A DNA stretch of 64,000 bases from an uncultured Acidobacteriota bacterium (GTDB lineage: Bacteria > Acidobacteriota > UBA6911), in NCBI GenBank assembly GCA_964642735.1, contig CAZXSV010000011.1:21589-85588 (forward strand), in the 5' to 3' direction. Shown here in pieces: positions 14,786-44,242 of the stretch. Within the stretch, counting starts at the first letter, position 1; the number at the start of each line of letters is the position of its first letter. The notes under the pieces were generated by a model. That model had not been told where the DNA came from. It did not search any database and worked only from the letters and a program-made list of their open reading frames with translations. Position numbers and translations under genes: made by a program.

Positions 14786-14798
14786 TTGCATTATGCAA
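14786..14798. promoter_or_regulatory. Type-1 palindrome TTGCATTATGCAA (putative enhancer-binding-protein site)
   Basis: Perfect TTGCA/TGCAA inverted arms, centred about 82 bp upstream of the GG of the -24 element at 14873. Confidence 0.45.
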
Positions 14799-14872
14799 CA
14801 AGTCAGTCCTTTCCATCTACTGGAATGGCCGGGTGCGGCCTTGGAATAAGGGAAAAAACAGGAAGGAAAGTA

Positions 14873-14887
14873 TGGCACGCTCAATGC
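14873..14887 (+). promoter_or_regulatory. Sigma-54 (-24/-12) promoter candidate upstream of thioredoxin
   Basis: TGGCACGCTCAATGC has a perfect TGGCACG -24 box, the exact GG-N10-GC spacing and an ATGCA -12 box. It lies about 70 nt upstream of the ATG at 14957. Confidence 0.65.
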
Positions 14888-14956
14888 ATAGTCCTTCATT
14901 ACGGATCAGCATGAATGATCGGGCTAAAAAGCCGCGCTATTCGAGAGAGGGCTTCA

Positions 14957-15304
14957 ATGACTGAAAAAAGCAAAATTTTGTACGCCAACGACGAAACATT
15001 CGACACGACCGTCCTCGACAGCGCTTTGCCGGTGCTGGTCGATTTTTGGGCGCCGTGGTGCGGCCCGTGTCGAACGTTCGAGCCTACAATCGAGGAACTC
15101 GCAAAGGAGTATGCGGGCAAAATCAAATTCGTCAAGGTCAATGTCGATCAGGGCCTGCGGACGGCGATGTCTCTGGATGTGAGAAACATTCCTGCCGTCG
15201 TTCTGTTCGCTCAAGGCAAGCCGGTCCGAAAACTCGTGGGCGCGCAGCCTAAAGCCGATCTGAATTCCGCAATCGAGCAATGGCTGAATGCAAACGCAGC
15301 TTAA
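14957..15304 (+). CDS. trxA: Thioredoxin
   Basis: VLVDFWAPWCGPCR active site and a length of about 115 aa. I prefer the ATG at 14957 over the track start at 14915. Confidence 0.9.
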   Translation: MTEKSKILYANDETFDTTVLDSALPVLVDFWAPWCGPCRTFEPTIEELAKEYAGKIKFVKVNVDQGLRTAMSLDVRNIPAVVLFAQGKPVRKLVGAQPKADLNSAIEQWLNANAA

Positions 15305-15317
15305 ATACAACGCACTG

Positions 15318-16154
15318 TCAAGGCATCTCGACGACCGACCCGGCTTTATTGAAGAAAAAAACCTCGCCAAATTCCTGAGACAAAAGGCGGGCCGCTTTCA
15401 TATCGGTGCAATGGCATAACCCCAGCCTTTGAATGCCGAACTCCCGAAGCGCGTCGACGGTCTGCCACAAGCGCTCCTCTGAAGCGCTTATCAGATGAGA
15501 ACCGCCGACCACGGCGTAGATGTTCTCTTCACCCGTCAGACGTTTCGCGTGGTTTAAGGTGTTGATCATGCCCCGGTGGGCGCAACCCAAAACGACGACA
15601 AGACCGGCGGCCGTCCTGACAACAAGAGCCTGGTCGTCCATAACTTCATCCGGCTGCAGCCCGGGCCCTTCTTTGACCAAGAGGGCGGGATCGACTTCTT
15701 CAAAAGAAACGGCCATCGGTATTTCTCCGGTCGTCATGATGGAGTCGTCGATTTTCACAGGTTTAGGGCTGAGAACAAACGAAGCGCCGAGGCTTTCCAA
15801 TTCGCATTGACGGTAGGGGATGCCGATATAGTGAACCGGCTCGCCCTTGCGGCGAGAGTATTTCAGCCCCCATACGTCCGGGTGGGCTATCACGTCCACT
15901 TTTTTACGCATCCGGCGCAAAATTTCACGCAGGCCGCCGGTATGGTCGAAGTGGCCGTGGCTCAGCACGATTTTATCTATGTTGTGAAGATCGATCCCAA
16001 GAACGTCGGCATTGTGAACGCTGGAATGTCCTTGGCCCGTATCGAGCAAAACTCTCGTTTTTTCCGTCTCGACGAGAATGCTCAAGCCCCATTCCGCAAG
16101 AAATTCGCCGATGGAGGCGGTGTTTTCGCTTAAAGTTGTTATCCGCAGCCCCAT
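15318..16154 (-). CDS. MBL-fold metallo-hydrolase (COG1237-type)
   Basis: LSHGHFDHTGG metal motif. The N-terminus ITTLSENTA...EWGLSILVE...VLLDTG is typical of the COG1237 subgroup. Confidence 0.8.
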   Translation of the reverse strand: MGLRITTLSENTASIGEFLAEWGLSILVETEKTRVLLDTGQGHSSVHNADVLGIDLHNIDKIVLSHGHFDHTGGLREILRRMRKKVDVIAHPDVWGLKYSRRKGEPVHYIGIPYRQCELESLGASFVLSPKPVKIDDSIMTTGEIPMAVSFEEVDPALLVKEGPGLQPDEVMDDQALVVRTAAGLVVVLGCAHRGMINTLNHAKRLTGEENIYAVVGGSHLISASEERLWQTVDALREFGIQRLGLCHCTDMKAARLLSQEFGEVFFFNKAGSVVEMP

Positions 16155-16233
16155 GCCCAGCCCTCCTCAAAAGATGATTATCAAGCGCTTTTCCCGAACA
16201 TCCTCATTCGCAATCCGGCAATATTCATTCACC

Positions 16234-17262
16234 TCAGAAGCCTAAGGCCATCAACGCCGCTCCCGCCGCGAGTCCAATGGCAAGATTGATAAGTTTAATG
16301 AGAAAAAAAGTGCGGCGGGAATGAGCCAGCATCGGAAGCATTCCATGGCCGTCCTGAACAATGCAGCTTGCAAGCAGGACGCTTAAAGGAATCAGATTTT
16401 TGGAAAATAGCGTTACAAATATCAGATGCGGACCCGATTCCGGCGCCAGACCGATCAAGGCGGCGATCGTCAGCATGATCCACTTGCTGTTCTGAATCGC
16501 CTCCCCGATCTGCCATTGGTGGACCAAAAGCTCCATAAGCCAGAGAGCGCTGAAAGTCCAGAGAAACACGCGCGGGACATGCTGGCGCACGACGTGCTTC
16601 CATAAATGCTCTTCCAGGAAATGCTCCGGCGCCGCCGCCACAATGAACAGCCCGATCCCGGAAGTCAGCAGAATGGTCGCCCGAATCCAGTTCCAATGTC
16701 CGGGGCCGATCTCTCCGGCGACGACGAGAAATATAAATAACAACAGGGAGAAAAAAAGCGCCCCTCGGGCGGCCGAGCATTTTTTCCACTGAGCGACGAA
16801 TTGGCCGACTTCAAAGAATTTACCGCAGTCCTGTTCGTGAAGGCGGAAATCTTCGCTGCAAGACAGAAAACGAGTCGTCTTGGGGCCGGCCAGCCAATCC
16901 GTCAAAAACGCTCCAAGAAGACCGATAACGAACAGCAAACCATGAATCAGAAAAGCGGTTTTGGGAATCATGGCGAACATGACAAAGGATTCGTCTCCGG
17001 AAGTTGCAATCATCGCAGCCACCACGCTGCCCAGAGTCAATCTGCGGTGGGCGTACATTGCCACGACCGCAAAGGCGCCCAGACACCCCGGAGTGACGCC
17101 CAAAAAGGAAGCGAGCAGGTACTGCCCGAAGAGGCGCCGGGACAACCGCTCCTGCCATGCGCCTCGGCTGAACACGTTGAGGCACTCGATAACCAGCATG
17201 ATGATTGCGACAAAGCCGGCAATCAACAACGCCTGATTCAATGCGATCCTTGCCATCTGCAC
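16234..17262 (-). CDS. ~10-TM membrane protein, putative metal permease (ArsP_2 / 'putative manganese transporter'-like)
   Basis: Polytopic hydrophobic ORF with VIECLN near the N-terminus. The family assignment is from memory and tentative. Confidence 0.5.
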   Translation of the reverse strand: MQMARIALNQALLIAGFVAIIMLVIECLNVFSRGAWQERLSRRLFGQYLLASFLGVTPGCLGAFAVVAMYAHRRLTLGSVVAAMIATSGDESFVMFAMIPKTAFLIHGLLFVIGLLGAFLTDWLAGPKTTRFLSCSEDFRLHEQDCGKFFEVGQFVAQWKKCSAARGALFFSLLLFIFLVVAGEIGPGHWNWIRATILLTSGIGLFIVAAAPEHFLEEHLWKHVVRQHVPRVFLWTFSALWLMELLVHQWQIGEAIQNSKWIMLTIAALIGLAPESGPHLIFVTLFSKNLIPLSVLLASCIVQDGHGMLPMLAHSRRTFFLIKLINLAIGLAAGAALMALGF

Positions 17263-18793: not shown

Positions 18794-19690
18794 TCAGATC
18801 TGGAAATTCGCATCAGGCCGAATCCCGGCGCCGGCCTCCAAAACGCCCGACAGATTGCGCCAGAGGCTTTTTATTTCCTGAGCGACCCTGCCGCTGGAAT
18901 ACTCGACTACCGGAACTCCACGAACAATGGATTCCGTAACAACGTTGTCAAAAGGTATTTTCCCCGCTATCTTGACTCCCCGGCCCAAACACTGGCTTTC
19001 TATCCGCCTTGCATTATCTTGATTCAAATCGCATTTGTTGATGCAAACCATAGCCAGGACGCCGAAATGTTTGCAGACGTCAAGCACTCTGTCCAAATCA
19101 TGCATCCCCGAAAGAGTGGGTTCGGCAACCAGCAGGGCCAGGGAGGCCCCGGACAGCGATGAAATTACCGGGCAGCCGATGCCGGGAGGGCCGTCGCATA
19201 TAATCAATTCTTTCCCTTCGCTCTCAGCGATTTTTTTGGCATGGCGCCGCACCACGGCGACAAGCTTTCCAGAGTTCTCCTCGGCGACGCCAAGCCGGGC
19301 GTGAACCAGCGGCCCGAACCTGGTTTCGGAAACAAACCAGTGTCCGCACATTCTATCTTTCATCGATATGGCTTCGGCGGGACAGATCAAGGAGCAAAAT
19401 TTGCAGCCTTCGCAGGAAACGGGATCGACGCAGAAATTTTCAATCGCGCCAAAACGGCAAATTTCCCGGCATTGGCCGCACTGGGTGCATTTTTCAGGAT
19501 CGATATAGGCGGCCTGCCCGCTCCAGAACTCGTTTTTCTGCCGCTCCTCCGGACAAAGCAGCAGATGAAGATCCGCAGCGTCCACATCGCAGTCGGCGAG
19601 CGCCTTGTTATCCGCCAAAACCGCCAGTGAACCGACGATGGTGGTTTTCCCGGTCCCCCCTTTACCGCTCAGTATGACAATTTCTTTCAT
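18794..19690 (-). CDS. MinD/ParA-type P-loop ATPase with an inserted 2x[4Fe-4S] ferredoxin domain
   Basis: ILSGKGGTGKTT deviant Walker A, plus CTQCGQCREICRFGAI and CEGCKFCSLICPAEAI. The ATG at 19690 overlaps the upstream paralog by 29 nt. Confidence 0.8.
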   Translation of the reverse strand: MKEIVILSGKGGTGKTTIVGSLAVLADNKALADCDVDAADLHLLLCPEERQKNEFWSGQAAYIDPEKCTQCGQCREICRFGAIENFCVDPVSCEGCKFCSLICPAEAISMKDRMCGHWFVSETRFGPLVHARLGVAEENSGKLVAVVRRHAKKIAESEGKELIICDGPPGIGCPVISSLSGASLALLVAEPTLSGMHDLDRVLDVCKHFGVLAMVCINKCDLNQDNARRIESQCLGRGVKIAGKIPFDNVVTESIVRGVPVVEYSSGRVAQEIKSLWRNLSGVLEAGAGIRPDANFQI

Positions 19691-20537
19691 CGATGAATCC
19701 TTTGACTCTATCGAAAAGCTCCTGGAAGCTTTTCTTCCACTTCGGCATCCCTTCAACCAAAGGTATGCCGCGCGAATAAAACCGGGCGATCTCGGCGTCC
19801 AGCGGGATGGAAAGCAGGATTGGAATGCCCTCTTTCCGACAATACTCCTGCACTCCGGAGTCTCCGACTCCGGTGCGGTTCAGCGCCACTCCGAAGGGAA
19901 TATCAAGCTTCCTTGCCATTTCCACGGCGAGAGAAAGGTCATTAAGACCAAAGGGAGTCGGTTCGGTGACCAGCAGGCAGAAATCGCTTCCTTTCACGGC
20001 TTCCACCACGGGGCAGGAAGTCCCCGGCGGAACGTCTCTGATGACGACGCCTTCGCATCCCGCGTTTTCCTTCACCTTTCGGATAACGGGCGGGGCCATG
20101 GCTTCCCCCACATTCAGTGCGCCATGAATGAAACTTATGCCGTTTGAATCCCCCCATTCGACGATTCCTGTTTCCCTGTTTTCCTCCTCGATCGCCTTTT
20201 CCGGGCAAAGGAAGCTGCACGCGCCGCAGCCGTGACAAAGCTGGGGAAAAGTCAACACACGCTTCCCCATAACGATAATCGCATTATAAGCGCATGCTTC
20301 GGCGCACTTCCGGCATAGGGTGCACTTTTTCTCGTCGACTTTCGGAACCGGAATCCACACGGCGCTTCTTCCGGCTATTTCAGGATTAAGAAAAATGTGA
20401 TCGTTCGGCTCTTCGACGTCGCAGTCGACGAGCTGGACTTTATGGGAATCTTTCAAAGAGAGGGCGAGGCTGGTCGCCACCAGCGTCTTGCCGGTTCCTC
20501 CTTTGCCGCTGGCTACCGATATAATCATTTTGTTCAA
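19662..20537 (-). CDS. MinD/ParA-type P-loop ATPase with an inserted 2x[4Fe-4S] ferredoxin domain (paralog)
   Basis: VASGKGGTGKTL, plus CTLCRKCAEACAYNAI and CHGCGACSFLCPEKAI. Confidence 0.8.
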   Translation of the reverse strand: MNKMIISVASGKGGTGKTLVATSLALSLKDSHKVQLVDCDVEEPNDHIFLNPEIAGRSAVWIPVPKVDEKKCTLCRKCAEACAYNAIIVMGKRVLTFPQLCHGCGACSFLCPEKAIEEENRETGIVEWGDSNGISFIHGALNVGEAMAPPVIRKVKENAGCEGVVIRDVPPGTSCPVVEAVKGSDFCLLVTEPTPFGLNDLSLAVEMARKLDIPFGVALNRTGVGDSGVQEYCRKEGIPILLSIPLDAEIARFYSRGIPLVEGMPKWKKSFQELFDRVKGFIDERNCHTER

Positions 20538-20546
20538 CTTCCTTGT

Positions 20547-21107
20547 TCAATTATTTTTCCCCAACTCTTCGATCCGCCGTTGGATTTCCGCCAGCTGATC
20601 CGCCATCATCCGCGACTGATTCTTCAGCTCCTGGAGCTCCTGTTCACGGCCTGATGACTGGGTTGAGGGCTCTGCCGCGCCTTTGCCCCTGCCGCAGCCT
20701 TTTCCCGCCCCTCGATTCATTCCGCCGCCTGCGCCCGGCGATCCCCCCATGCCAAAATGATCCGGCGCGTTAGCCTGATCGCTCGCTTTGTATTTGCCCA
20801 ACCGATAGTTTTGCACGACGTCTTTCACCTTGCCTGAGACTCCGGTGATGATCCCGACGCCGGCGGCGGAAAGCGCCTGGTAAGCGTTGGGTCCGCAGTG
20901 GCCTGTCAATACCGCCTGCACGCCTTTATCGGCGATTGTCTGTGCGGCTGCAATCCCTGCGCCGCCGGCCGCCGAAGCCGCGGAGTTGTCCATTGCTTCG
21001 AACGCCATTGTCTCGGGATCGACAATAATAAAGTAAGGGCAACGGCCGAACCGTGGCTCGGCTTCGGCTTCCAGGCCGGGGCCCGCTGCTGAAATTGCAA
21101 TTTTCAT
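20547..21107 (-). CDS. NifX/NifB-C-terminal-like (dinitrogenase FeMo-cofactor-binding fold) domain fused to a Gly-rich linker and a DUF5320-like coiled coil
   Basis: N-terminus MKIAISAAG...RFGRCPYFIIVD...AVLTGHCGPNAYQAL, then GGSPGAGGGMNRGAGKGCGRGKG, then ELQELKNQSRMMADQLAEIQRRIEEL. Confidence 0.75.
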   Translation of the reverse strand: MKIAISAAGPGLEAEAEPRFGRCPYFIIVDPETMAFEAMDNSAASAAGGAGIAAAQTIADKGVQAVLTGHCGPNAYQALSAAGVGIITGVSGKVKDVVQNYRLGKYKASDQANAPDHFGMGGSPGAGGGMNRGAGKGCGRGKGAAEPSTQSSGREQELQELKNQSRMMADQLAEIQRRIEELGKNN

Positions 21108-21124
21108 ATCTCCTCCTCGTTTTT

Positions 21125-21859
21125 CTATTTATTATTCCTAACCATGGTGAGCCGACGAACTCCCCCGATCTGCCGGTAATTGGCGCCCTGGCTCACACAG
21201 CGGAGGGCCAGGTCCGCGTCAAAAACTTTCGTGCCCGATATGGCATCGATGCCGTAATCAAAAAGAACGGGCGACAGCGGCGCGCTGTCGCCGAGGATTA
21301 CAACATAGGCTTCAGGTCTGCACAAATCCAGCAGTTGTTCGATAGTATGGTTGGTAAAGGCCGTACCGGTAATTCCAACGACATCGGCCATTGGGATGCA
21401 ATCAACCGACGCGGATTCATCCAGGTCTCCTTCGGCCGGATTCTTCTCAATAACCCAGAGTTCCTTCACCGCTTCACGCAGCTCGGGGATGAAGGGAAAA
21501 TGCCCAACGATGGCCACATTCCGGCCCCTTCCCTTTTCGGCGATCAATTCGCGGGCATTGAGGTTTCGGCAGCGTTCTTCATCAATTTCGAGCAATGAAT
21601 TGATCGTCGCCATGCCAACGGCCGCTTCCAGAATGCTGTCGGAATAAGCCATTTCAACCAGCTCCGATGCGCTTTTAGCCAAAAGCTCGCCCGGCGTCCG
21701 GATAGACGGACGGCCCTGTTTTAAAACGTCGCGCGGCAGGGTGGAAGCCAAACCGCAATTGCGGGTCGCCACGCCCGTATGAAAGAGACCGACGCGTATG
21801 TCTCTTACATCCGCTTCAGTGTTCAAAGTCGAAAGCAAGTCTTCGAGAATTTTTTTCAC
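21125..21859 (-). CDS. DUF4213/DUF364 protein (putative metal-chelation fold), copy 1
   Basis: Contains IRVGLFHTGVATRNCGLASTL and a Rossmann-like VAIVGHFPF. Collinear with 43399..44145. Confidence 0.75.
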   Translation of the reverse strand: MKKILEDLLSTLNTEADVRDIRVGLFHTGVATRNCGLASTLPRDVLKQGRPSIRTPGELLAKSASELVEMAYSDSILEAAVGMATINSLLEIDEERCRNLNARELIAEKGRGRNVAIVGHFPFIPELREAVKELWVIEKNPAEGDLDESASVDCIPMADVVGITGTAFTNHTIEQLLDLCRPEAYVVILGDSAPLSPVLFDYGIDAISGTKVFDADLALRCVSQGANYRQIGGVRRLTMVRNNK

Positions 21860-22047
21860 AGCTTCATCCGCCTTCCGGTCGCAATATCTTGCTCAGCCTG
21901 AGAATCCCAAGCCTGTGGACTTGTAAAAGAGGCAAAGAAGCGCAGAATCCGAAATGTTCACAGGGCGCTTCATCGGCGCATCCGGAGAATACACTGCGTG
22001 GCTTTTGAATCCTCGCTGTTTTCCGTCTGCTGCACCTTAAGAGTCAA

Positions 22048-22062
22048 GCAATAATCTTTCCA
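22048..22062 (-). promoter_or_regulatory. Sigma-54 promoter candidate for the DUF364-NifX-MinD-permease-MBL operon
   Basis: The minus strand reads TGGAAAGATTATTGC with exact GG-N10-GC spacing. The -24 box is weaker (TGGAAA) and the site is about 190 nt upstream of the ATG at 21859. I saw no clear type-1 site beside it. Confidence 0.35.
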
Positions 22063-22140: not shown

Positions 22141-23517
22141 CTATCGCACGCGTTTCCTGCCGGCGCGGCCATCCCGTTCCGGCGGCTTGATTCCGAGTCT
22201 TTTCATCCGCCGAAATAAAGTTGTCTTGTGGATGCCCAGCTCCTTCGCCGCCGCAAGGCGATTGAATCCGGTTCGATCGAGAGTCGAACGAATGGCCTGT
22301 GCATCGAAAACGTCATGGACTGATCGAATGCCGGAATCGAACCGGCCGGCGGCGGCCAAGCCGGTCAACTCTTCAGGCAGGTGCGGGATATCGATAAATC
22401 CGTCCCTGCAAAGAACGAAAGCGCGCTCGATGACATTTTCCAGTTCCCGAATATTGCCTGGCCAATGATACGCCATCATAAGCGACAGAGCTTCTGGCGC
22501 GACCCCCTGGACATTCTTTCGCTGCAGGCGGTTGAAACGCGCAATGAACTGGTTTGCCAGAAGCGGAATGTCCTCTTTCCGCCGGCGCAACGGCGGAAGT
22601 TCGATGCGGACGACATGGACCCGGTAGTAAAGGTCCTCTCTGAAAAGACCCTTGCGGACCATTTCACGCAGGTCTTTGTTGGTGGCGGCAATGACGCGGG
22701 CATCGGCGGCGACGGATCGATCGGCGCCAAGCGGTTCATAGGCGCGCTCCTCGAGCACGCGCAGCAGCTTGACCTGGAGAGCCGGAACGACTTCAGCGAT
22801 TTCGTCGAGGAAAATGGTCCCCCCGCCGGCCAAGGCAAAACGTCCCGGCTTGTCCCGGTTTGCTCCCGTAAACGCTCCGGCCTTATAGCCGAACAGTTCA
22901 GACTCCAGAAGCGTTTCCGGCAAAGCGCCGCAATTGACAGCTATGAATGGCCCATGGCGCCGGGGGCTTAGAGAATGAACGGTTCTAGCCGCCACCTCTT
23001 TTCCGGTTCCCGTCTCCCCCAGGATCAAAACCGTGCTCAGGCTGGACGCAATTGCGGGAAGGACTTCAAACACCCGCTGCATCAAAGGACTCCTGCTGAC
23101 AAGATCGCCGGCGTGGAATTTCCCCTCGAGTTCACGACGCAGCGCCTCCAGTTCGGAAAGGTCTCTGAAAGTCTCGGCGCCGCCGACCACACGTCCGCTG
23201 CCATCCCTTAACACCGCCGTGGAAATGCTTACCGGTATGCGGGTCCCTTCGGAGTTGATTATGAACGCTGATTTTCCAATGATGGGTTTCCCCGTTTCCA
23301 GGGTCTTGGCAAGAGCGCACGCGTCCCCGCACATGCTGCAGCGGAACACTTCCGAACATCGCTGTCCAACGGCTTCTTTTCTGGAAACGCCTGTGATTTC
23401 CTCGGCCGCACGGTTAAAAGAGGCAATGCGCCATTGCCCGTCTACGGTGAAAACGCCATCGGAAATGCTCTCCAAAATGGCTTCAGTCTGGAATCGTTTT
23501 CTCGGATTCTTTTTCAC
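22141..23517 (-). CDS. Sigma-54-dependent transcriptional activator, PAS - AAA+ - Fis-HTH (EBP1)
   Basis: GETGTGKEVAARTVH Walker A, GAFTGA loop, C-terminal AAKELGIHKTTLFRRMKRLGI, and an N-terminal PAS domain (ISDGVFTVDGQWRIASFNRAAEEITG). Confidence 0.9.
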   Translation of the reverse strand: MKKNPRKRFQTEAILESISDGVFTVDGQWRIASFNRAAEEITGVSRKEAVGQRCSEVFRCSMCGDACALAKTLETGKPIIGKSAFIINSEGTRIPVSISTAVLRDGSGRVVGGAETFRDLSELEALRRELEGKFHAGDLVSRSPLMQRVFEVLPAIASSLSTVLILGETGTGKEVAARTVHSLSPRRHGPFIAVNCGALPETLLESELFGYKAGAFTGANRDKPGRFALAGGGTIFLDEIAEVVPALQVKLLRVLEERAYEPLGADRSVAADARVIAATNKDLREMVRKGLFREDLYYRVHVVRIELPPLRRRKEDIPLLANQFIARFNRLQRKNVQGVAPEALSLMMAYHWPGNIRELENVIERAFVLCRDGFIDIPHLPEELTGLAAAGRFDSGIRSVHDVFDAQAIRSTLDRTGFNRLAAAKELGIHKTTLFRRMKRLGIKPPERDGRAGRKRVR

Positions 23518-33806: not shown

Positions 33807-33847
33807 GCCTGGAATTCGGCATGGTCGTCAATCCACGAAAGCATGAA

Positions 33848-36467: not shown

Positions 36468-37532
36468 TTATCCGGAAGCTTTGGGAAAAGCCAGGACGGC
36501 TTCGGGACGCACGCAAATCCAGCGATCGTCCCCCGCAGAGACGCCGCTGGAAGAATCCCGGCAGAACGGATGGTAGGCGATAAGCGGAAACCCCGCATCC
36601 ATCTCCAATTCAAGGAAGGAAGGGCGAAATCGGACCTGAACGATTCTGGCTTTGAAGCGATTCCCATCCTTGGGATCGTTGTTTTCGGTCGCGAAAGCGA
36701 TTCCCTCGGGTCGAATAGCGAAAACAACCGGGCCTTCCAGCGATTTGCCGCTGCTGTGCAGAACGACGCCCGAAGGAGTTCTTATTCGGCAGCCTCCGGG
36801 GATTGTCTCGGCGACGCCTTCATTGAAGTTTCGCGTTCTCGTAAACTCCGCGATGAACAAAGTGGAAGGATTGGCGAGTATTTCCTGAATCGATCCCGCC
36901 TGTTCAATCGAACCCCGGTTCATGATGGCGATGCGATCCGCCACCAAAGAAGCCTCTTCGAAACTGTGACACACATGAAGAAACGTTCGATTGGAATCTT
37001 GTTGAATCCGCCTGAGTTCGCCCGCGAGTTGCGAACGCAGATTCTCGTCCAGAGCGCTTAAAGGCTCATCCAGCAGCAGAATGTTTGGCTGAGTGATCAG
37101 CGCCCTGCCGAGTGCGACTCGTTGCTTTTCGCCTCCGCTCAGGAAAAGCGGCAAGCGGTTCTGCAGAGGCGCGACTCCCAATTTTTCCATCATGGATTCC
37201 ACTCTCGTCCGGATTTCCGAGGGATTGATTTTGCGCGCTTTCAAGCCGTAGCCGAGGTTTTGCCGGACAGTCATGTTGGGAAACAGGGCGTAGTCCTGGG
37301 GCACGTATCCGATGTTTCTTTCTTCGGGATAGCAGCCGACGACGTCCCGGCCATTGATGCGGATGCCGCCGGAATCCGGCTTGTTTATTCCGGCGATGCA
37401 TTCCAGCAGAACGCTTTTCCCCGCTCCCGTAGGCCCCAGAAGAACGAAATACTCTCCCTCGTTTATCCGAAGATGGATGTCACGCAGGTCAAACTCGCCG
37501 AGATGGATGTTTAGTTTTTCAATCTGAATCAT
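36468..37532 (-). CDS. ABC transporter ATP-binding protein with a C-terminal TOBE-like domain (molybdate/tungstate/sulfate class)
   Basis: GPTGAGKS, LSGGEKQRVALGRAL, LLLDEPLSALD and a C-terminal beta-rich regulatory domain. The ATG at 37532 is 4 nt after the permease stop. Confidence 0.85.
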   Translation of the reverse strand: MIQIEKLNIHLGEFDLRDIHLRINEGEYFVLLGPTGAGKSVLLECIAGINKPDSGGIRINGRDVVGCYPEERNIGYVPQDYALFPNMTVRQNLGYGLKARKINPSEIRTRVESMMEKLGVAPLQNRLPLFLSGGEKQRVALGRALITQPNILLLDEPLSALDENLRSQLAGELRRIQQDSNRTFLHVCHSFEEASLVADRIAIMNRGSIEQAGSIQEILANPSTLFIAEFTRTRNFNEGVAETIPGGCRIRTPSGVVLHSSGKSLEGPVVFAIRPEGIAFATENNDPKDGNRFKARIVQVRFRPSFLELEMDAGFPLIAYHPFCRDSSSGVSAGDDRWICVRPEAVLAFPKASG

Positions 37533-37536
37533 GCCG

Positions 37537-38499
37537 TCACCACACGTATCCCCTGCCGCCCAGACGATGCAGAACGTAAATGCTGATCCCGCTGATGAAA
37601 ACCAACGCAAAGGCGATTCCAAAACCATATTCAAGCTCGCCATACTCGATTGCCGACCACATGGCGACAGGAAGAATGTCCGCCTGATGCAGCTGCAATT
37701 CCTGTAGAAAAGGAGAAAAACGGGACAGCGGAAGCTCGCGGAATGTGCCGCAAAATAAAAGAACCGCGCCGAATTCGGCCATCGCCCGCGCCCATGCCAG
37801 GATGAACCCGGCAAAGAGCCCCGTCCGACACAAGGGGAGCGTCACGGTCCGAAAAGCCCGCCAATGCGAACTGCCCAAGGAACGGGCCACGTGCTCGTAG
37901 CGGGGATGGACGCCGTCAAAGGCGGCCTTCCAGGCGCTCAGTCCGATGGCCAGCGATAGCACGAGTTGGGCGACGACAATGCCCGGAAAAACGGAGTGGG
38001 CGGCCTGAATATGAAAATGCGCCTGCAGCCTGGACAGAAACCCATGCTGAAAAACGACGATCAGACAAAGACCGACGGATGAAGCGGGCAGCACGATCAC
38101 CGAAGAAAACAGAACGTCAATGACGGAGCGTCCCGGAATCCGGAACCGCGACAACGCGTACGCCGAGGGAATGCCCAGGATTGCGGCGATCAAAGCGGTC
38201 AGAGTGGATGAGGCGATCGACAGATGAACCGAACGCCAGAAGGCGGGATCCTTCCACAATCCTCCGGCGAATTCATTCGCCCGGCTTGTTTTTCGCCACA
38301 AGTCCATCCCTTCCGTTGCAACGAGCTTTTTGGGAAACAGCTCCCCTGCGTTGCTTAAAAAAAGCCAGCAGGATGCAAGCGCCAGGAGAATGGCGGCGGC
38401 GTAAAAAACAGCGGCAAACAAATGGCCGGCTTTGCGGCTCGGGAGCACGGATGGATTGGACGACGGATTGCTACCAAACATAGCTCTTCCTCCCGACAA
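37537..38499 (-). CDS. ABC transporter permease (CysTW/ModB class), subunit 2
   Basis: EAA-loop region ARSLGSSHWRAFRTVTLPL and six hydrophobic segments. Confidence 0.85.
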   Translation of the reverse strand: MSGGRAMFGSNPSSNPSVLPSRKAGHLFAAVFYAAAILLALASCWLFLSNAGELFPKKLVATEGMDLWRKTSRANEFAGGLWKDPAFWRSVHLSIASSTLTALIAAILGIPSAYALSRFRIPGRSVIDVLFSSVIVLPASSVGLCLIVVFQHGFLSRLQAHFHIQAAHSVFPGIVVAQLVLSLAIGLSAWKAAFDGVHPRYEHVARSLGSSHWRAFRTVTLPLCRTGLFAGFILAWARAMAEFGAVLLFCGTFRELPLSRFSPFLQELQLHQADILPVAMWSAIEYGELEYGFGIAFALVFISGISIYVLHRLGGRGYVW

Positions 38500-39277
38500 T
38501 CCGCACTGCGCCCATCGCGGCGATCGCCATCCAGATGCAAAGGAGGCTCAACGAAACCACCCAGCCCATCATGCCCCCGTTCCAGTCGAGATAGACGGCG
38601 AAAGGAAGCGTATCGGTGCGCCCTTCCGTCCCGCCCACAAAAAGCATCAACGCCTCCCATTCCGCCGCGGCTCTGGCCCACACGACTATCAAGCTGGCGA
38701 CAATTCCCCGGCGAGCCAACGGAATGGTGATTTGAAAAAAGGTTCGCGCGCGCGAGGCGCCAAGGGACCGGGATACAAATTCCAAGCGAGGATTGACCGC
38801 GTCGAAGGCCGTTTTCATCAAGCGGGCGCAAAAAGCCACGGTGACGACAAACTGTGCGAACACAACTCCCGCCGCCGTGCGGCCGAGATCGAGTCCCAGC
38901 AGCGTCAAAAGGTCGCGCAACGGCGGCGTATGCGTCAATCCGAAAAGAAACGCGCCGACGGCGGCCGGAGGGACAAGCACCGGCAGATCGATGATCGTGG
39001 CCATAAGCCGAGGGCACGGGAAGCGGAAACGGGACAGGGCGTATCCTGCGAAGATTCCGAAAACAAGCGAAAATCCTGTGGCCAGCGTGGCTGTCCAGAT
39101 TGTCAGCCAGAGGCGTTTCCAGAGCCTCGGATGGCTGAAAAAATAAAGGCTGTCGCTAAAACCCAGATAAAAAATGTTGCTCAAAACGAGCAAAAAATAT
39201 CCGATCAGGATGATGCTCACCGACGCCAGACAAATGACCGGCCATATCCGGTTGCGGCTCGACGAAGATTTCTTCAT
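38471..39277 (-). CDS. ABC transporter permease (CysTW/ModB class), subunit 1
   Basis: SRSLGASRARTFFQITIPL EAA loop. I prefer the ATG at 39277 (MKKSSSSRNRIWPVI...); the long track extension to 39685 overlaps the SBP gene. Confidence 0.85.
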   Translation of the reverse strand: MKKSSSSRNRIWPVICLASVSIILIGYFLLVLSNIFYLGFSDSLYFFSHPRLWKRLWLTIWTATLATGFSLVFGIFAGYALSRFRFPCPRLMATIIDLPVLVPPAAVGAFLFGLTHTPPLRDLLTLLGLDLGRTAAGVVFAQFVVTVAFCARLMKTAFDAVNPRLEFVSRSLGASRARTFFQITIPLARRGIVASLIVVWARAAAEWEALMLFVGGTEGRTDTLPFAVYLDWNGGMMGWVVSLSLLCIWMAIAAMGAVRIVGRKSYVW

Positions 39278-39303
39278 TGAATAATTCCGAATCGCGGGGC
39301 TTC

Positions 39304-40284
39304 TCAGTCCCCCGCGCGAATTGTTTTCCGTTGGCGCGTCACTTCTCCCCCAAGCGGGCCGACCTCTTCTTGGCCGGTTTTGCGGGAAGGATCCTTGACG
39401 GCGGCGGCGGCGTTCATAAGCCATTGCATCAGCTGGTCGACGGCGCGGTCTTCCGCGGCTTGGAATCCGTCCTTGTCCCGCGGAATCGAGCCTACCGCGT
39501 ATGCATGTCTCAAAAAGATCTCTTTGCCTTGATCCGAAAGCATAAAGTTCTTCAGCGAAACAGCCGCCCGAGGATGTTTTGAAAAAGCAAGGGTTGCGAC
39601 CGGAAGGCGCACTACCGCACGGTACCGGTGTGGCAGCGGCAGCACCTCGCAGTCGCGCAGGTACAGTACCGCTGTAGTCGCCCAAACGATCGTGGCGTCG
39701 ATGAGATTATGCTGGGCGGCGTTGCCTAGCTCTGGAATGCATTTAGCGCTAAAGGACGCATTTTTCCGGACCTCCTCCAAAATGCCGGCTTTTTTGAAGA
39801 CTTTTTCATGCTCGACTCCGATCGCGCAGGATCGAGGATTCCCCAAACCGACCCTGACATCCGGTCTGGCAAAGTCTTCTATCCCCCGAATCTGCTTTGG
39901 ATTCCCACGCGGCGTCAAAATGACGGTGATGAAATAGGCGGCAATGTCCCGATTGGGATCGTAATCGGTCACAAAGCCTCTCTCGGCCGCCTGGAGCACG
40001 TAGAACTCTTCGCCAGGCATGAAAAGATCGCCTTCTTGGGAACGGCTGAGATCCGCCAAGAAATAACCGGAACCCTTGAAGGAAAAATTGACGCGCACGT
40101 CGGGATGGATTTTTTGAAACTTCTGCTGGACTTCCCTGAGAGAAGAACGCTGTCCGACCCCTGCGTGAAAAAGCAGGGTCTGTTCACGCTTGCATTGGGC
40201 GCAGGGAATTAAAAGAAGAACGACCCCTGTGCAACAGAACAGCCGTTTAAATCCAAGGAGCTTTCTATAGTTCATAAAATGCAT
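39304..40284 (-). CDS. ModA/WtpA-like periplasmic oxyanion-binding protein with a ~70-aa C-terminal extension
   Basis: Signal or lipoprotein-like N-terminus. NFSFKGSGYFLADLSRSQEGDLFMPG parallels the ModA sfggSg...aDvf.sa pattern. Ligand specificity is unknown. Confidence 0.7.
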   Translation of the reverse strand: MHFMNYRKLLGFKRLFCCTGVVLLLIPCAQCKREQTLLFHAGVGQRSSLREVQQKFQKIHPDVRVNFSFKGSGYFLADLSRSQEGDLFMPGEEFYVLQAAERGFVTDYDPNRDIAAYFITVILTPRGNPKQIRGIEDFARPDVRVGLGNPRSCAIGVEHEKVFKKAGILEEVRKNASFSAKCIPELGNAAQHNLIDATIVWATTAVLYLRDCEVLPLPHRYRAVVRLPVATLAFSKHPRAAVSLKNFMLSDQGKEIFLRHAYAVGSIPRDKDGFQAAEDRAVDQLMQWLMNAAAAVKDPSRKTGQEEVGPLGGEVTRQRKTIRAGD

Positions 40285-40493: not shown

Positions 40494-41651
40494 CTAAGCG
40501 TTCGCTTCTATGGATGAAATGCCGCGAAGCCGCCGGACGGTATCGGCCAGGGCGGCGACGACAGCATCGACGTCCTCCTCTTTCGTGCTCCTGCCGAACG
40601 AGACCCTGACGGAGCTTTGCGCTTCCTTGGGAGAAAGCCCCATCGCGAGAAGGACATGCGAGGGCTCCGGGTCGCCTGTGGAGCATGCGGAGCCCGTCGA
40701 AACATAGATTCCGCGAAGGTCCAATCCAAGAACGATAGATTCCCCGTCGACGGACTCGAAACTCAGGCTGGAAGTGTTCGGCGCGCGCGGCGAGGACGAT
40801 CCGTTGATTTTCACTCGCGGCGCCGCGGAAACGATCCGGGACTCAAACCGGTCGCGAAGGCGCCGCAGCCGCCTGGATTCGGCAGCCGAAGACTCGACCG
40901 CCAAGGCGAGCGCGTGAGCGAATCCGACAATGCCGGCGACATTTTCCGTTCCGGCGCGCAAACCGCGCTCATGCGGCCCGCCGGTGAGGATGGGATCGAC
41001 CGGAGTCCCTTCGCGGACGTACAGCGCAGCCGTCCCCTTGGGGCCGTATATCTTGTGGCCGGAAACGGAAATAAGGTCGGCGCCGAGCTCGCACAACCGG
41101 CCGGGCATCTTGCCCGCCGTCTGCACCGCGTCCGTGTGAAATACAACGCCGCGCCTTTTAGCCAGCGCGGCGATCTCCTCAACCGGCTGGAGCACGCCGG
41201 TCTCGTTGTTGGCGTGCATGACGCTGATCAGGACGGTCTCCGGGCGCAAACTTGATTCGACGTCCTCAACGCGGACGGCGCCGCCGGCCCCGACCGGCAG
41301 ATAGGAGATCCGTCTGCCTTCAGATTCCAGGGCTTTGCACGTGTGGAGCACGGCGTGGTGTTCGATCGCCGTTGTTACGATGTGATCGCCGCGCGACCGC
41401 AACGAGCGCGCCACTCCGCGAATCGCAAGGTTGTCCGATTCCGTGCCGCAGGAAGTAAAAAATACTTCCGCAGGCTTGCACCCGAAGCAATCGGCGACGC
41501 TCTCCCGGGCCTTTTCCACGGCGAGCCTGGCCTGATTGCCGAAGCTGTAAGGGCTGGAGGGATTGCCCCAGCGATCGTTCAGGAAAGGAAGCATGGCTTC
41601 CAGGACCCGGCCGTCCAGCGGGGTTGTCGCGTTGTAATCGAGATAGATCAC
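40494..41651 (-). CDS. nifS: Cysteine desulfurase NifS
   Basis: IYLDYNATTP, SGHKIYGPKG (PLP Lys) and STGSACS (active Cys loop). The GTG at 41651 overlaps the nifU stop (GTGA). The track start at 41867 lies inside nifU. Confidence 0.9.
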   Translation of the reverse strand: MIYLDYNATTPLDGRVLEAMLPFLNDRWGNPSSPYSFGNQARLAVEKARESVADCFGCKPAEVFFTSCGTESDNLAIRGVARSLRSRGDHIVTTAIEHHAVLHTCKALESEGRRISYLPVGAGGAVRVEDVESSLRPETVLISVMHANNETGVLQPVEEIAALAKRRGVVFHTDAVQTAGKMPGRLCELGADLISVSGHKIYGPKGTAALYVREGTPVDPILTGGPHERGLRAGTENVAGIVGFAHALALAVESSAAESRRLRRLRDRFESRIVSAAPRVKINGSSSPRAPNTSSLSFESVDGESIVLGLDLRGIYVSTGSACSTGDPEPSHVLLAMGLSPKEAQSSVRVSFGRSTKEEDVDAVVAALADTVRRLRGISSIEANA

Positions 41652-42121
41652 CGTTTCTTCTCCTCGCGAGCGAGCTTTCTCGCCTCCCAATCCCTTATGG
41701 CCGCCTGAAGGGCCAAAACGCCCAGCAGCGAACAGTGCTTTTTCCTTTCCGGAATCCCTCCGAGGGCCTCCACAACGTCGTCGTCCGTTATTCTCCCAGC
41801 TTCTTCTATAGACTTCCCTTTCGCCAGGGCGGTCAACATGCTGCTGGTGGCGATCGCACCCGGACATCCGAAAGATTTAAACGCAATCTTTTCGATCCGC
41901 TCGGACTTGACCGATATCCAGAGCTTCATCTGGTCGCCGCAGGAGGGGTCGCCGACCAATCCGTATCCATCCGTCTCGCTCTCCGGCAGTTCTCCTGCAT
42001 TGCGCGGATTGATGAAATGATCGATGACATCTTCATTGTAAAAAAGGACAGGTCCCGAATACCGGGGCTGTTCTTTATTCTCATCCGTATTCTCATCCGT
42101 CGGTGGTTTTTCCATAGCCAT
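41648..42121 (-). CDS. nifU: NifU/IscU-type Fe-S scaffold (N-terminal-domain type)
   Basis: GDPSCGDQMKLWI, FGCPGAIATSS and KKHCSLL, the three scaffold Cys motifs. Confidence 0.85.
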   Translation of the reverse strand: MAMEKPPTDENTDENKEQPRYSGPVLFYNEDVIDHFINPRNAGELPESETDGYGLVGDPSCGDQMKLWISVKSERIEKIAFKSFGCPGAIATSSMLTALAKGKSIEEAGRITDDDVVEALGGIPERKKHCSLLGVLALQAAIRDWEARKLAREEKKR

Positions 42122-42167
42122 TGATTCTCCCCGCCATCACTTTACACGGGTTTTCGCAGAAAGTCAG

Positions 42168-42182
42168 GCGATCCCTAAGCCA
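42168..42182 (-). promoter_or_regulatory. Sigma-54 promoter candidate upstream of nifU-nifS
   Basis: The minus strand reads TGGCTTAGGGATCGC with exact spacing. The -12 box is TCGC (GC conserved). It lies 47 nt upstream of the ATG at 42121. Confidence 0.35.
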
Positions 42183-42271
42183 TCCCACAGGCCGATGCGC
42201 CGGCTTGACCTCGGGGCGTCCGGAAGATGTGGGAAGGGATGGAATGCAACAAAATTGAATATAATGTTTTA

Positions 42272-42284
42272 TTGCAGAATGCAA
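42272..42284. promoter_or_regulatory. Type-1 palindrome TTGCAGAATGCAA
   Basis: Perfect arms, centred about 97 bp upstream of the GG of the 42168-42182 candidate, in the thioesterase/nifU intergenic gap. Confidence 0.4.
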
Positions 42285-42291
42285 TGAGCAT

Positions 42292-42765
42292 TTACAGCGC
42301 TTCGTCGCTCCCTCCGGCCTGGATCAAATCCCGGTCGATAAATTTGGCCGAGGCCCGGACCAGAGTCCGCCCTTCCTGCTCCAGCTCCGCTTCCATCACA
42401 TACAGCGGCGGCTCATATTCCCTGATCCAGGCCTTGACGGTAGCCGGGCGATCGATTTCCACCGGAAGAAGGAATCGGACGATGAGCCTTGCCGTCACCG
42501 CAACGATTCTGCGGGCGAAAAGACAATTGGCCATCGCAGAATCCAGCAGCATAGAACTGACGCCTCCGTGCAGAAAACCCGGATACCCTTGATACACCCG
42601 GCTGCATGAAAACTCCGCCTGGACGCCCTTGTCGTCCCGAAGGGAAAACTCGAGTGCAAGCCCCGTAGCGTTCCCCGCGCTGCACGTGATGCAGTTCGGA
42701 TGCGCCAGTCTCCTGGTAGTTTCAAGATCTTGCGTGCAAGGGTCAACCATATAAATATCGTTCAA
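42292..42765 (-). CDS. PaaI-family hotdog-fold thioesterase
   Basis: YQGYPGFLHGGVSSMLLDSAMANC core motif, 157 aa. Confidence 0.75.
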   Translation of the reverse strand: MNDIYMVDPCTQDLETTRRLAHPNCITCSAGNATGLALEFSLRDDKGVQAEFSCSRVYQGYPGFLHGGVSSMLLDSAMANCLFARRIVAVTARLIVRFLLPVEIDRPATVKAWIREYEPPLYVMEAELEQEGRTLVRASAKFIDRDLIQAGGSDEAL

Positions 42766-42775
42766 AATGAAAGAT

Positions 42776-43150
42776 TTAATGACCGCACTGCCCGCCGTGT
42801 TCCTGACAGGAATCGTTCATTGAAAGCTCTTGAAGCCTGTCTTCTTTCAATAATGCGATATTTTCGTCGATGGTTGCGGCGCCCGCTCTGTAAACCTTTA
42901 CGCCCATCGCGTTGAATTTCGAAACGGCCCCCGGGCCCATGCCGCCTACAATCATCGCATCGACGCTGTTCCCTCCAAGGGTCATAAACGGATTGCAGAC
43001 GCCATGCTCCCGATGAGAGTTGGCATTATCCACCGCGGAAATCTGCAGATTGTCGACGTCGACAATGACAAATGCGGGCGCCGAGCCGAAGTGTCCATAA
43101 ACAGCGCTTTTAAGTCCTTGATTGAATTGAACCGGGAAACCAACCTTCAT
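42776..43150 (-). CDS. NifX/NifB-C-terminal-like cofactor-binding-fold protein with a Cys/His tail
   Basis: VYGHFGSAPAFVIVD...AMIVGGMGPGAVSKFNAMGVKVY, with tail DSCQEHGGQCGH. Confidence 0.8.
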   Translation of the reverse strand: MKVGFPVQFNQGLKSAVYGHFGSAPAFVIVDVDNLQISAVDNANSHREHGVCNPFMTLGGNSVDAMIVGGMGPGAVSKFNAMGVKVYRAGAATIDENIALLKEDRLQELSMNDSCQEHGGQCGH

Positions 43151-43231
43151 CTCTTTCTCCTTCGATTAAATTTAATTGGGAACGTTTCTCAAACCGAGCC
43201 GATCTCCTTCCAAAACTCGTCCTGCTTTCAA

Positions 43232-43246
43232 GCAATTTGATGGCCC
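43232..43246 (-). promoter_or_regulatory. Sigma-54 promoter candidate for the nifX-like-thioesterase unit
   Basis: The minus strand reads GGGCCATCAAATTGC with exact GG-N10-GC spacing. It lies about 85 nt upstream of the ATG at 43150. Confidence 0.4.
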
Positions 43247-43309
43247 TATTATAGGAAATTTTCTCTACGATTTAAACCTCTTCGCTCTGTCTTCGCACGG
43301 TTGCACGAC

Positions 43310-43324
43310 AGGCACGCCGATTGC
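43310..43324 (+). promoter_or_regulatory. Sigma-54 promoter candidate for DUF364 copy 2 (and possibly EBP2)
   Basis: AGGCACGCCGATTGC has GGCACG at -24 and TTGCT at -12 with exact spacing. It lies about 75 nt upstream of the ATG at 43399. Confidence 0.65.
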
Positions 43325-43398
43325 TTTTTTGAACACTTTCGATACAATGGGGCCGGGCGAGAGGATGGGTCGCTTTTCCACAATGCGGAGGATTTTTC

Positions 43399-44145
43399 AT
43401 GCTGGCGAATGAAATAGCCGATCACGGACTCACGCTCGTCGATCGTCACACCGTTTCCGACATCCGAATCGGTCTTGGCTATACAGCGGTCCTGCTCGAC
43501 GACGGCCGGTGCGGCTTGGCCTACACCCTGCACGAACAGCCCTACGAGTCCTGCAGCGTGATTTCCGAAGCCGGGACACTGGCCGGAAGAAAAGCGTCGG
43601 AATTGATCCCCTGGATGAAATCTAAGGATGTCACGGCCTGCGCCGTCGGGTTGGCGACGCTCAACGCCCTGATCCGTCCGCATGCCGCGGCGGCGGAATC
43701 CGACATCATCGACCTGCTGCCGGTGAACCCCGGCGATCGAGTCGGGATGGTCGGCTATTTCGGCCCGCTGGTTGCGCCGATAAAAAAACGGGCTCAAGCC
43801 CTCTACATCTTCGAACGCAAGGCCAATTCCGAATACGACATATTGCCCGAATCGGCGGCGGAAGAACTGCTTCCCACATGCCAGGTTGCCATCCTGTCCG
43901 CGACCGCAATCATGAACCACACCATCGACAGGCTGCTCGGATTGTCCGAATCAGCCCGCGAAATTGCAGTCCTTGGCCCTTCCACTCCTTTTCTGCCTGA
44001 AATCTTCCGTTCGTACGGCGTAACAATGCTTTCAGGAATTCAAGTCGTCGATTCCCGCCGGATCCTTCAGATTGTGAGCGAAGCGGGCGGCACCCGGCTG
44101 TTTGGCCGTGCGGTCCGGAAGCTTTCCTTGCGCTGCGCCGCATAA
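43399..44145 (+). CDS. DUF4213/DUF364 protein, copy 2
   Basis: IRIGLGYTAVLLDDGRCGLAYTL and VGMVGYFGP, collinear with copy 1. Confidence 0.75.
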   Translation: MLANEIADHGLTLVDRHTVSDIRIGLGYTAVLLDDGRCGLAYTLHEQPYESCSVISEAGTLAGRKASELIPWMKSKDVTACAVGLATLNALIRPHAAAAESDIIDLLPVNPGDRVGMVGYFGPLVAPIKKRAQALYIFERKANSEYDILPESAAEELLPTCQVAILSATAIMNHTIDRLLGLSESAREIAVLGPSTPFLPEIFRSYGVTMLSGIQVVDSRRILQIVSEAGGTRLFGRAVRKLSLRCAA

Positions 44146-44198
44146 TCAGAGAACCGGCGCCCCCGGCCGCAATCCCGGTTCCGGTCGGCATCGACTGT

Positions 44199-44242
44199 TT
44201 GCATAATGCAAATGTTTTGACATTATTTAATGCATAATGCAA
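44199..44242. promoter_or_regulatory. Pair of type-1 palindromes (TTGCATAATGCAA and ATGCATAATGCAA), 31 bp centre to centre
   Basis: Sites at 44199-44211 and 44230-44242, ending 25 nt before the EBP2 ATG. The order and spacing match the pair at 23637-23680. Confidence 0.5.

Follow-up and report, generated by a model that had tools for sequence, protein, structure and literature searches.

The sigma-54 activator OrpR (DVU2106) of Desulfovibrio vulgaris Hildenborough is composed of a PAS domain, an AAA+ ATPase domain and a helix-turn-helix (HTH) domain (Fievet 2014, 2021; PMC8359166, PMC3897727). Its PAS domain carries a redox-sensitive [4Fe-4S] cluster which needs Cys52, Cys61 and Cys65, with a conserved Asp or Glu at position 54, and the protein is active when reduced and constitutive when the PAS domain or the cysteines are removed (PMC8359166). 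OrpR boxes, described as the 17-bp imperfect palindrome GGGCGYRTTTTGCGCCC, lie upstream of two divergent orp operons and are centred near -88 and -131 from the start sites; by chromatin immunoprecipitation sequencing in D. vulgaris, essentially only these two operons were found as main OrpR targets (PMC8359166, PMC3897727). The operons carry the genes for MrpORP, for a NifX-like 'orange protein' and for two ParA-ferredoxin proteins (PMC6345978), and a GAFTDA loop is listed for DVU2106 in the table of Kazakov 2015 (PMC4641369). Here we describe a palindrome, tTGCA-tWa-TGCAa, that recurs in a 64,000-nt stretch of one contig of an uncultured, anaerobic Acidobacteriota bacterium (CAZXSV010000011.1; this stretch is referred to as the window). 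From comparative sequence evidence, these palindromes are probably the upstream activating sequences (UAS) of an OrpR-family enhancer-binding protein (EBP), most probably EBP2, one of two paralogous PAS-type EBPs encoded in the window.

EBP1 and EBP2, which are 54% identical, each contain PAS, AAA+ and Fis-type HTH domains in that order in one protein, with no receiver domain, as judged by Pfam; MrpORP was recognised with the NCBIfam model NF041136. We observed that the Cys/Glu pattern C-x-[DE]-x6-C-x3-C is present in 63/63 proteins of the EBP1 clade and 9/9 of the EBP2 clade, and absent from 37 of 40 unrelated activators. In EBP2 it reads CFEVFRASICENAC, and the residues Cys51, Glu53, Cys60 and Cys64 have a spacing identical to that of C52, E54, C61 and C65 of OrpR; in EBP1 the signature CSEVFRCSMCGDAC starts at residue 54. 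EBP2 and 8 of 9 EBP2-clade proteins have the GAFTDA loop, as in DVU2106, whereas EBP1 has the canonical GAFTGA.

Palindromes and -24/-12 promoters in the window

The exact motif TTGCANNNTGCAA (TTGCA-N3-TGCAA) has five matches in the 64-kb window, to which all motif counts refer unless other loci are named, with starts at 14786, 23637, 34022, 42272 and 44199. The expectation from 100 dinucleotide-preserving shuffles was 0.12, and no shuffle reached five. When one mismatch was allowed, there were 10 matches against 2.7 expected (0/100 shuffles reached 10). Two of the one-mismatch sites, 23668 and 44230, are intergenic and are each paired with an exact site at a distance of 31 bp; the remaining three (16361, 31355 and 52922) are in coding sequence and had low scores with the weight matrix described below. 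The site at 44230-44242 overlaps an in-frame ATG at 44237, but the public gene call for the identical protein has 456 aa, which places the EBP2 start at 44267, so that this site is intergenic as well. Intergenic DNA amounts to about 16% of the window, and the chance that seven sites out of seven would fall there is 0.157^7, or about 2e-6.

The seven sites have the invariant core TGCA-N3-TGCA, with A or T at the dyad, and the full element is a 17-bp palindrome of about caTTGCAtwaTGCAAtg. We also constructed a weight matrix that was trained only on sites adjoining EBP2-clade genes in other genomes (consensus caTTGCAaatTGCAAtg). This foreign-site matrix ranked the seven window sites 1 to 7, at 15.2-21.5 bits, with the next match at 13.6 bits, and is thus an independent recovery of the site list given in the first-pass annotation of this DNA. 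At 15 bits or more, the window had 7 matches in its 64 kb and the relatives 18 in 102 kb, against 5 in 1.1 Mb of EBP1-clade loci. In the simpler form WWGC-N5-GCWW, 13 of 25 window occurrences were intergenic, vs 0/15 for WWGC-N6-GCWW.

The first-pass annotation had listed the seven sites as always intergenic, with well under one match expected by chance in 64 kb, had reported GG-N10-GC elements 80-175 bp away at four loci and had described two paired loci with the same site order and a 31-bp spacing. Each of these claims was borne out by our examination: the sites are where they had been placed, the shuffles agree with the rough estimate of chance, the 31-bp centre-to-centre spacing and the identical order of both pairs were confirmed, the elements are present at distances of 82-171 bp, and the one-mismatch search returned the seven listed sites and the three coding matches only. 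On a scale with a maximum of 14.5, the elements at 14873, 23813 and 23545 (minus strand) are the three best -24/-12 matches in the window.

Probable assignment of the sites to EBP2

We compared the window with four sets of loci: 80 genome loci around EBP1 relatives (59-76% identity, many phyla, 1.1 Mb; L001-L080); 80 metagenome loci around EBP2 relatives; close relatives, with EBP2 79-87% identical, on contigs L161, L163, L164, L166 and L167 (five independent contigs, since L162 nearly duplicates L163, and L165 nearly duplicates L164); and three contigs, L168, L169 and L170, with the closest thioredoxin homologues (64-69% identity). EBP2 homologues at 77-89% identity are numerous, and the named ones are from Acidobacteria metagenome-assembled genomes.

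Sites were found within about 300 bp of the gene at 10 of 12 loci of EBP2 orthologues that were at least 64% identical. They were located upstream, downstream or on both sides, often as pairs 31-33 bp apart, and typically 75-170 bp upstream of strong -24/-12 promoters driving NifX-like or 4HBT genes; a NifX-like gene adjoins the activator in most of the EBP2-relative metagenome loci. In the close relatives the gene order is NifS-NifU, (4HBT), NifX-like, usually DUF364, and EBP2, and a pair of sites 31-32 bp apart stands just before the EBP2 start codon in 5/5 independent contigs (L161-L167). The matrix gave 20 matches of 13 bits or more in these loci, and by the gene tables every one of them is intergenic.

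The loci of EBP1 relatives gave a different result. TTGCA-N3-TGCAA had three exact matches in 1.1 Mb, which is the chance level. We at one point took this for non-conservation, a reading that was dropped, as EBP1 orthologues use an N6-spaced box instead. At 48 of the 80 loci a NifX-like gene lies about 200 bp downstream of the activator, and in the spacer two aGTAGC-N6-GCTACt palindromes, separated by about 34 bp, stand before a strong TGGCAC-N5-TTGC promoter (examples are L003:11338-11532 and L031:11371-11552). Boxes of this type were also seen at L168:5590-5641 and L012:11946-11963. This box has one base more between its GC dinucleotides than the window motif. It looks like a second, widely conserved class of OrpR-like box, belonging to EBP1 orthologues of many phyla; our literature search found no published name for GTAGC-N6-GCTAC.

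Box geometry was found to co-vary with the activator. The EBP1 clade had 87 N6 and 29 N5 boxes and the EBP2 clade 6 N6 and 18 N5 boxes (Fisher p = 6e-6), and the recognition-helix region reads LGIHKTTLFRR in the EBP1 clade vs LGI[ND]xSTLYRK in the EBP2 clade. The HTH of the window EBP2 is LGINPSTLYRK, and that of the window EBP1, LGIHKTTLFRR, is the exact version of its 63-member clade. By matrix, no N6 box was found in the intergenic DNA of the window, including the segment 21860-22140 downstream of EBP1. Because EBP1 has the HTH of the N6 clade and the window intergenic DNA has no N6 box, the seven sites are probably those of EBP2 and not of EBP1. In the first-pass annotation the palindrome was taken for a UAS or operator of the PAS-type EBPs, either one of them or both; the comparative evidence supports this proposal, with EBP2 rather than EBP1 as the probable binder. 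As a separate observation, the segment 21860-22140 contains only a mediocre -24/-12-like element at 22047-22062 (minus strand).

An alternative reading is that EBP1 binds the sites, either alone or along with EBP2, the two paralogues being interchangeable or forming mixed oligomers, so that two signals would be integrated at the same promoters. The two proteins share one architecture and over half of their residues, one site pair directly adjoins EBP1, the half-sites of N5 and N6 boxes are alike (some EBP1-clade boxes read TTGCA-N4-TGCAA), and with no EBP1-type box in the window EBP1 has no visible target there. We nevertheless regard this reading as unlikely, as the recognition helix of the window EBP1 is that of the clade whose boxes have the extra base. 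Furthermore, L168-L170 have an EBP1-type gene, with N6 boxes before a NifX-like/DUF5320 operon, and these contigs and L012 contain both box types at different promoters, which points to two separate specificities per cell.

Much less likely still is that an unrelated classical factor, of the Rrf2/IscR-like or CRP/FNR-like kind, uses the palindrome as its operator to repress or activate sigma-70 promoters of Fe-S and thiol genes, and that the proximity of -24/-12 elements is incidental. Many dimeric regulators typically recognise 13-bp palindromes with an AT centre, control of Fe-S biogenesis genes is classically the task of Rrf2-family proteins, and the pair before EBP2 has an operator-like position. 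Yet the sites are not accompanied by a gene for a factor of this kind, either in the window or in its relatives, the sites track EBP2 orthologues across divergent metagenomic contigs at 75-170 bp from strong TGGCAC-N5-TTGC promoters, and their geometry varies with the HTH clade of the activator. A role as chance occurrences or a selfish short intergenic repeat without regulatory function has next to no probability: although the sites are short and AT-rich in a genome of 56% GC, and AT-rich words gather in intergenic DNA, the shuffles produced 0.12 where five were observed, the flanks of the window sites are mutually unrelated, and site positions are conserved in genomes with 79-87% EBP2 identity while the surrounding intergenic sequence has diverged.

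It should be noted that several observations weigh against the reading of these sites as EBP2 enhancers. The assignment is drawn from co-variation in other genomes, and the half-sites, TTGC/GCAA, are similar in the two box classes. Two loci (34022 and 42272) have a lone site, and a search with the matrix for a second, weak site near them gave nothing above 9 bits; assembly of an EBP ring usually gains from two sites. The -12 part of the nifU element reads TCGC and not TTGC, and L164 and L167 have no strong nifU site by matrix. The pair before EBP2 ends 25 bp before the start codon and leaves no room for a downstream promoter. L169 has kept the promoter of the thioredoxin operon, with no site shown. 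No exact consensus for integration host factor (IHF; WATCARNNNNTTR) was seen in the five regions between window sites and promoters, an absence of little weight, since the functional D. vulgaris sites match it only to 67-78%. Finally, rpoN is not in the 64-kb window; its existence is implied because three sigma-54 activator genes are present there.

With these reservations, we propose that an EBP2 dimer would bind each palindrome and that, at sites 31-33 bp (three helical turns) apart, neighbouring dimers on one face of the DNA would aid assembly of the AAA+ ring. A DNA loop would bring the ring to sigma-54 polymerase at a GG-N10-GC element, over a distance of 80-170 bp, and the promoter would be opened by ATP hydrolysis. 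With the OrpR ligand set, the PAS domain of EBP2 would bind a [4Fe-4S] cluster, through which redox or cluster state would control the ATPase. What the sequences show is enrichment, geometry and conservation of the sites, their co-variation with the HTH clade and the ligand signature; from these we infer binding by EBP2, a positive rather than a negative effect, the cluster and the signal.

Predicted regulon and its loci

Coordinates of the features are collected in Table 1. The predicted regulon comprises thioredoxin, two divergent orp-like operons, a small Cys-rich protein and nifUS; possibly, the orp2-like genes downstream of EBP1 also belong to it.

Table 1. Sites, candidate promoters and genes of the predicted EBP2 regulon, with neighbouring genes (promoter scores have a maximum of 14.5)
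Feature	Position	Strand	Remarks
Degenerate partner site CTGGCATTTTGCC	about 14751-14767		6.3 bits alone; 33 bp upstream of main site
Palindromic site, core TTGCATTATGCAA (14786-14798)	14784-14800		20.7 bits
-24/-12 promoter TGGCACGCTCAATGCA	14873-14888	+	14.0; site centre to -24 GG, 82 bp
Thioredoxin gene	14915-15304	+	Pfam Thioredoxin, E = 1e-30
orp2-like genes, 3' of EBP1	18794-21859	-	Pfam: DUF364, NifX-like + DUF5320, two ParA/CbiA-ferredoxin (Orp3/Orp4-like)
EBP1	22141-23517	-	PAS / sigma-54 AAA+ / Fis-type HTH (Pfam)
-24/-12 promoter TGGCACGGCGTCTGCA into EBP1	23545-23560	-	14.0, near-consensus; 84 and 115 bp from the two site centres
Site pair TTGCACAATGCAA (23637-23649) + ATGCATTTTGCAA (23668-23680)	23635-23682		19.3 and 19.8 bits
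-24/-12 promoter TGGCACGATCATTGCC of orp1-like operon	23813-23828	+	14.0; site centres to -24 GG, 140/171 bp
orp1-like operon	23893-26701	+	Pfam: Mrp/NBP35, NifX-like, Zn-ribbon, radical SAM
Mrp/NBP35	23893-24972	+	N-terminal part of MrpORP model NF041136
NifX-like	24981-25415	+	C-terminal part of MrpORP model NF041136
Thi4	26884-27837		downstream of orp1-like operon
CoA-disulfide-reductase/rhodanese protein	28065-29753		after Thi4
Small Cys-rich open reading frame (ORF; MKKAKMACPFTGGPCLECSLYRGRHQNL...); product start MKKAKMACPFTGGPCLECSLYRGRH	33468-33785	-	sequence read
-24/-12 promoter TGGAAGGCATATTGCT	33847-33862	-	12.5; site centre to -24 GG, 167 bp
Single site TTGCAAAATGCAA (34022-34034)	34020-34036		21.5 bits, top match; between PNPOx-like gene and small ORF
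PNPOx-like gene	34178-34588	-	
nifU (41648-42121) + nifS cysteine desulfurase	40494-42121	-	Pfam NifU_N, Aminotran_5
Weak -24/-12 element TGGCTTAGGGATCGCC before nifU	42167-42182	-	10.5; TCGC at -12; site centre to -24 GG, 97 bp
Single site TTGCAGAATGCAA (42272-42284)	42270-42286		21.3 bits; between 4HBT stop codon and nifU
NifX-like (42776-43150) + 4HBT thioesterase (42292-42765)	42292-43150	-	Pfam; upstream of nifUS
Candidate -24/-12 element GGGCCATCAAATTGCT before NifX-like gene	43231-43246	-	sequence read
-24/-12-like element AGGCACGCCGATTGCT upstream of DUF364 and EBP2	43310-43325	+	promoter scan
Site pair TTGCATAATGCAA (44199-44211) + ATGCATAATGCAA (44230-44242)	44197-44244		15.2 and 21.0 bits
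EBP2	44267-45637	+	PAS / sigma-54 AAA+ / Fis-type HTH (Pfam); 456 aa

At the thioredoxin gene, for which the public call starts at about 14957 and gives 115 aa (P0121, a 100% match), the site is kept in L168 and L170 at 89-91 bp before a TGGCA..CAATGCA promoter, and the degenerate partner is nearly letter-identical, at equal spacing, in both contigs. In L168:3744-4348, L169:2956-4360 and L170:2863-4486, the sigma-54 promoter drives peptide deformylase, or a remnant of it, followed by thioredoxin; in the window the deformylase has been lost and the promoter directly precedes thioredoxin.

The site pair 23637/23668 is common to two divergent sigma-54 promoters, those of EBP1 and Mrp. In the corresponding orp-like intergenic regions of L162/L163 and L164, one or two sites lie between divergent -24/-12 promoters. 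L012/L164 have the same divergent layout around one site; there, one of the promoters reads through NifX-like and ParA-ferredoxin genes and then the EBP1 orthologue, the last gene of the operon, after which an N6 box follows. Because EBP1 has a -24/-12 promoter of its own beside the sites, it appears to be a target under the EBP2 box, that is, subject to cross-regulation rather than autoregulation. The orp genes linked to the activators in the window include three NifX-like genes, two ParA/CbiA-Fer4 genes and MrpORP, which, from the matches to the two parts of its model, is split here (or fused in Desulfovibrio).

The small Cys-rich ORF has a homologue in L161 (50% identity over 52 aa), which stands behind a -24/-12 promoter and a site and has matching VKOR and PNPOx-like neighbours in the same gene order. 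A plus-strand ORF at 33821-34645 was considered and rejected as probably spurious, having low third-position GC and no family match; the PNPOx-like gene on the minus strand was taken instead. A sigma-70 promoter and terminator scan of 33700-34800 gave nothing that altered this picture, and an Rfam scan of the window gave no RNA family. In the spacer at 31927-32060, between the C_GCAxxG_C_C and VKOR genes, there are facing -24/-12-like elements at 31978-31993 (minus strand) and 32003-32018 (plus strand), with weak matrix matches of about 12 bits at 32054/32059, so that the regulon may have additional, weaker members here.

At nifUS, the weak window element aligns with CAGGCAATC...GCCA elements in L161, L163 and L166, and the promoter of L166, TGGCACATGGATTGCC, is strong. 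A nifU site is present once in L161 and as a pair in L162/L163 and in L166. The order NifX-like, 4HBT, nifUS also occurs in L161, L163 and L167, and a GGCCA-N5-ATTGC element is found at the matching place before the NifX-like gene in L161 and L166. In relatives that do not have DUF364 (L166, L082, L083 and L086), the pair before EBP2 is placed as a UAS of the divergent NifX-like promoter. In the window this pair might act over about 1 kb or repress the transcription of EBP2, or have both effects. The genes after nifS, at 36468-40284 on the minus strand, encode an SBP_bac_11 binding protein, two permeases and an ABC ATPase; L166 has the same transporter set and a TonB receptor after nifS. The set may be a metal or oxyanion importer that is co-regulated with nifUS.

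The first-pass annotation had proposed a regulon of thioredoxin, the mrp operon, nifUS and the small ORF, together with autoregulation of the activators. The predicted regulon agrees with site conservation at matching loci in other genomes: at EBP2, nifU, the orp-like genes and the small ORF in close relatives, and at thioredoxin in L168 and L170. As for the activators, regulation of EBP1 is retained, in the form of apparent cross-regulation, its autoregulation is not, and the pair at EBP2 may have a repressing role.

Among the other genes of the window, three poorly characterised families of putative metal or redox proteins are represented twice each: DUF169, DUF364/DUF4213 and C_GCAxxG_C_C (at 13893-14675, 35027-35413, 21125-21859, 43399-44145, 31165-31926 and 35518-36090). 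Their genes are interleaved with the orp-like genes, and the families recur in the loci of relatives. The third sigma-54 activator, at 49370-52035, is of the response-regulator type, with an adjacent histidine kinase, and is unrelated to the palindrome. At 54411-57147 there are genes for cytochrome c and for MtrC/MtrF-like multihaem cytochromes, which hints at extracellular electron transfer.

A broader, tentative proposal, which we rate as possible but doubtful, is that in anaerobic Acidobacteriota-like bacteria, and perhaps beyond them, Fe-S cluster and thiol homeostasis have an OrpR-type [4Fe-4S]-PAS activator as their master regulator, a sigma-54 counterpart of IscR/SufR, and that this activator stands atop a two-tier cascade from EBP2 to EBP1. 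Loss or oxidation of the cluster in the PAS domain would then set the expression of nifUS, MrpORP, thioredoxin and the small Cys-rich protein, and EBP2, through TTGCA-N3-TGCAA, would switch on EBP1, which would read GTAGC-N6-GCTAC. If so, the orp genes would be placed in Fe-S biogenesis rather than in cell division.

Comparison with known regulators

The OrpR/orp type of system is already known, although the first-pass annotation did not name this family. What appears to be new is the box sequence, the two specificity classes one base of spacing apart, the putative paralogue cascade and the wider predicted regulon outside Desulfovibrionales. In a non-exhaustive literature search, which included sigma-54 regulon papers (Kazakov 2015, Clostridiales 2019 and a 2025 cross-phylum survey), we found no description of the motif or of an Fe-S regulon for this activator type. 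Our observations suggest that the OrpR-type family is widespread across anaerobic phyla, that it is split into at least two DNA-specificity classes which differ by one base of half-site spacing, and that general Fe-S assembly genes (nifUS) and a thioredoxin have come under its control in one lineage. This offers a way into the question of how Fe-S biogenesis is regulated in strict anaerobes with no described IscR-type circuit at these genes. Circumstantially, it also favours a place for the orange-protein complex in metallocluster maturation. As for the two box spacings, the N5/N6 pair would be a compact natural system for the spacing preference of Fis-type HTH dimers.

To our knowledge, OrpR is the only EBP shown to sense via an Fe-S cluster in a PAS domain. 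NCBIfam has no OrpR model, and the best matches of the two window activators in it (PrdR and NifA) are far below the cut-offs; the OrpR-type assignment was made by signature, loop, domain order and gene context, with DVU2106 compared by its published description. The OrpR box and the window palindrome are both 17 bp long and have the inner GCA-N3-TGC in common, and the inner core of the OrpR box, GCATTTTGC, occurs literally in window site 23668. The arms differ, being caTT... in the window and GGGC... in D. vulgaris. Distances are similar (82-171 bp from site to -24 in the window and about 90-130 bp for OrpR), and in both systems the orp-type operons are divergent and the regulator gene is flanked by sites. 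In contrast to the two orp operons of D. vulgaris, the window sites are also found before nifUS, thioredoxin and the small Cys-rich ORF; the restriction to orp operons is a property of one species and not a definition of the family. The window also differs from the D. vulgaris orp system in having two paralogous activators, one of which is apparently under the box of the other, and in its host, which belongs to the Acidobacteriota and not to Desulfovibrio.

A further relative of the window palindrome, from the loci compared here, is the aGTAGC-N6-GCTACt box of the EBP1 clade, with the same protein family, palindrome pairs before a -24/-12 promoter and NifX-like gene, and related half-sites; the HTH is HKTT...FRR there and xxST...YRK in the EBP2 clade. 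With NtrC and NifA (TGCACC-N5-GGTGCA and TGT-N10-ACA, respectively), the window shares the general scheme of palindromes for dimers, frequently in tandem, at 80-200 bp before -24/-12 promoters, and of activation through DNA looping, but sensory domains (receiver or GAF), motifs and regulons are different. IscR and SufR are Fe-S cluster-sensing regulators of isc/suf/nif-type Fe-S biogenesis genes, and their likeness to the window system is one of analogous function only, in that an Fe-S regulator, which in the window is a predicted one, is set over cysteine desulfurase and scaffold genes. They belong to the unrelated Rrf2 or ArsR-type families, act at sigma-70 promoters with no AAA+ ATPase, and recognise other motifs.

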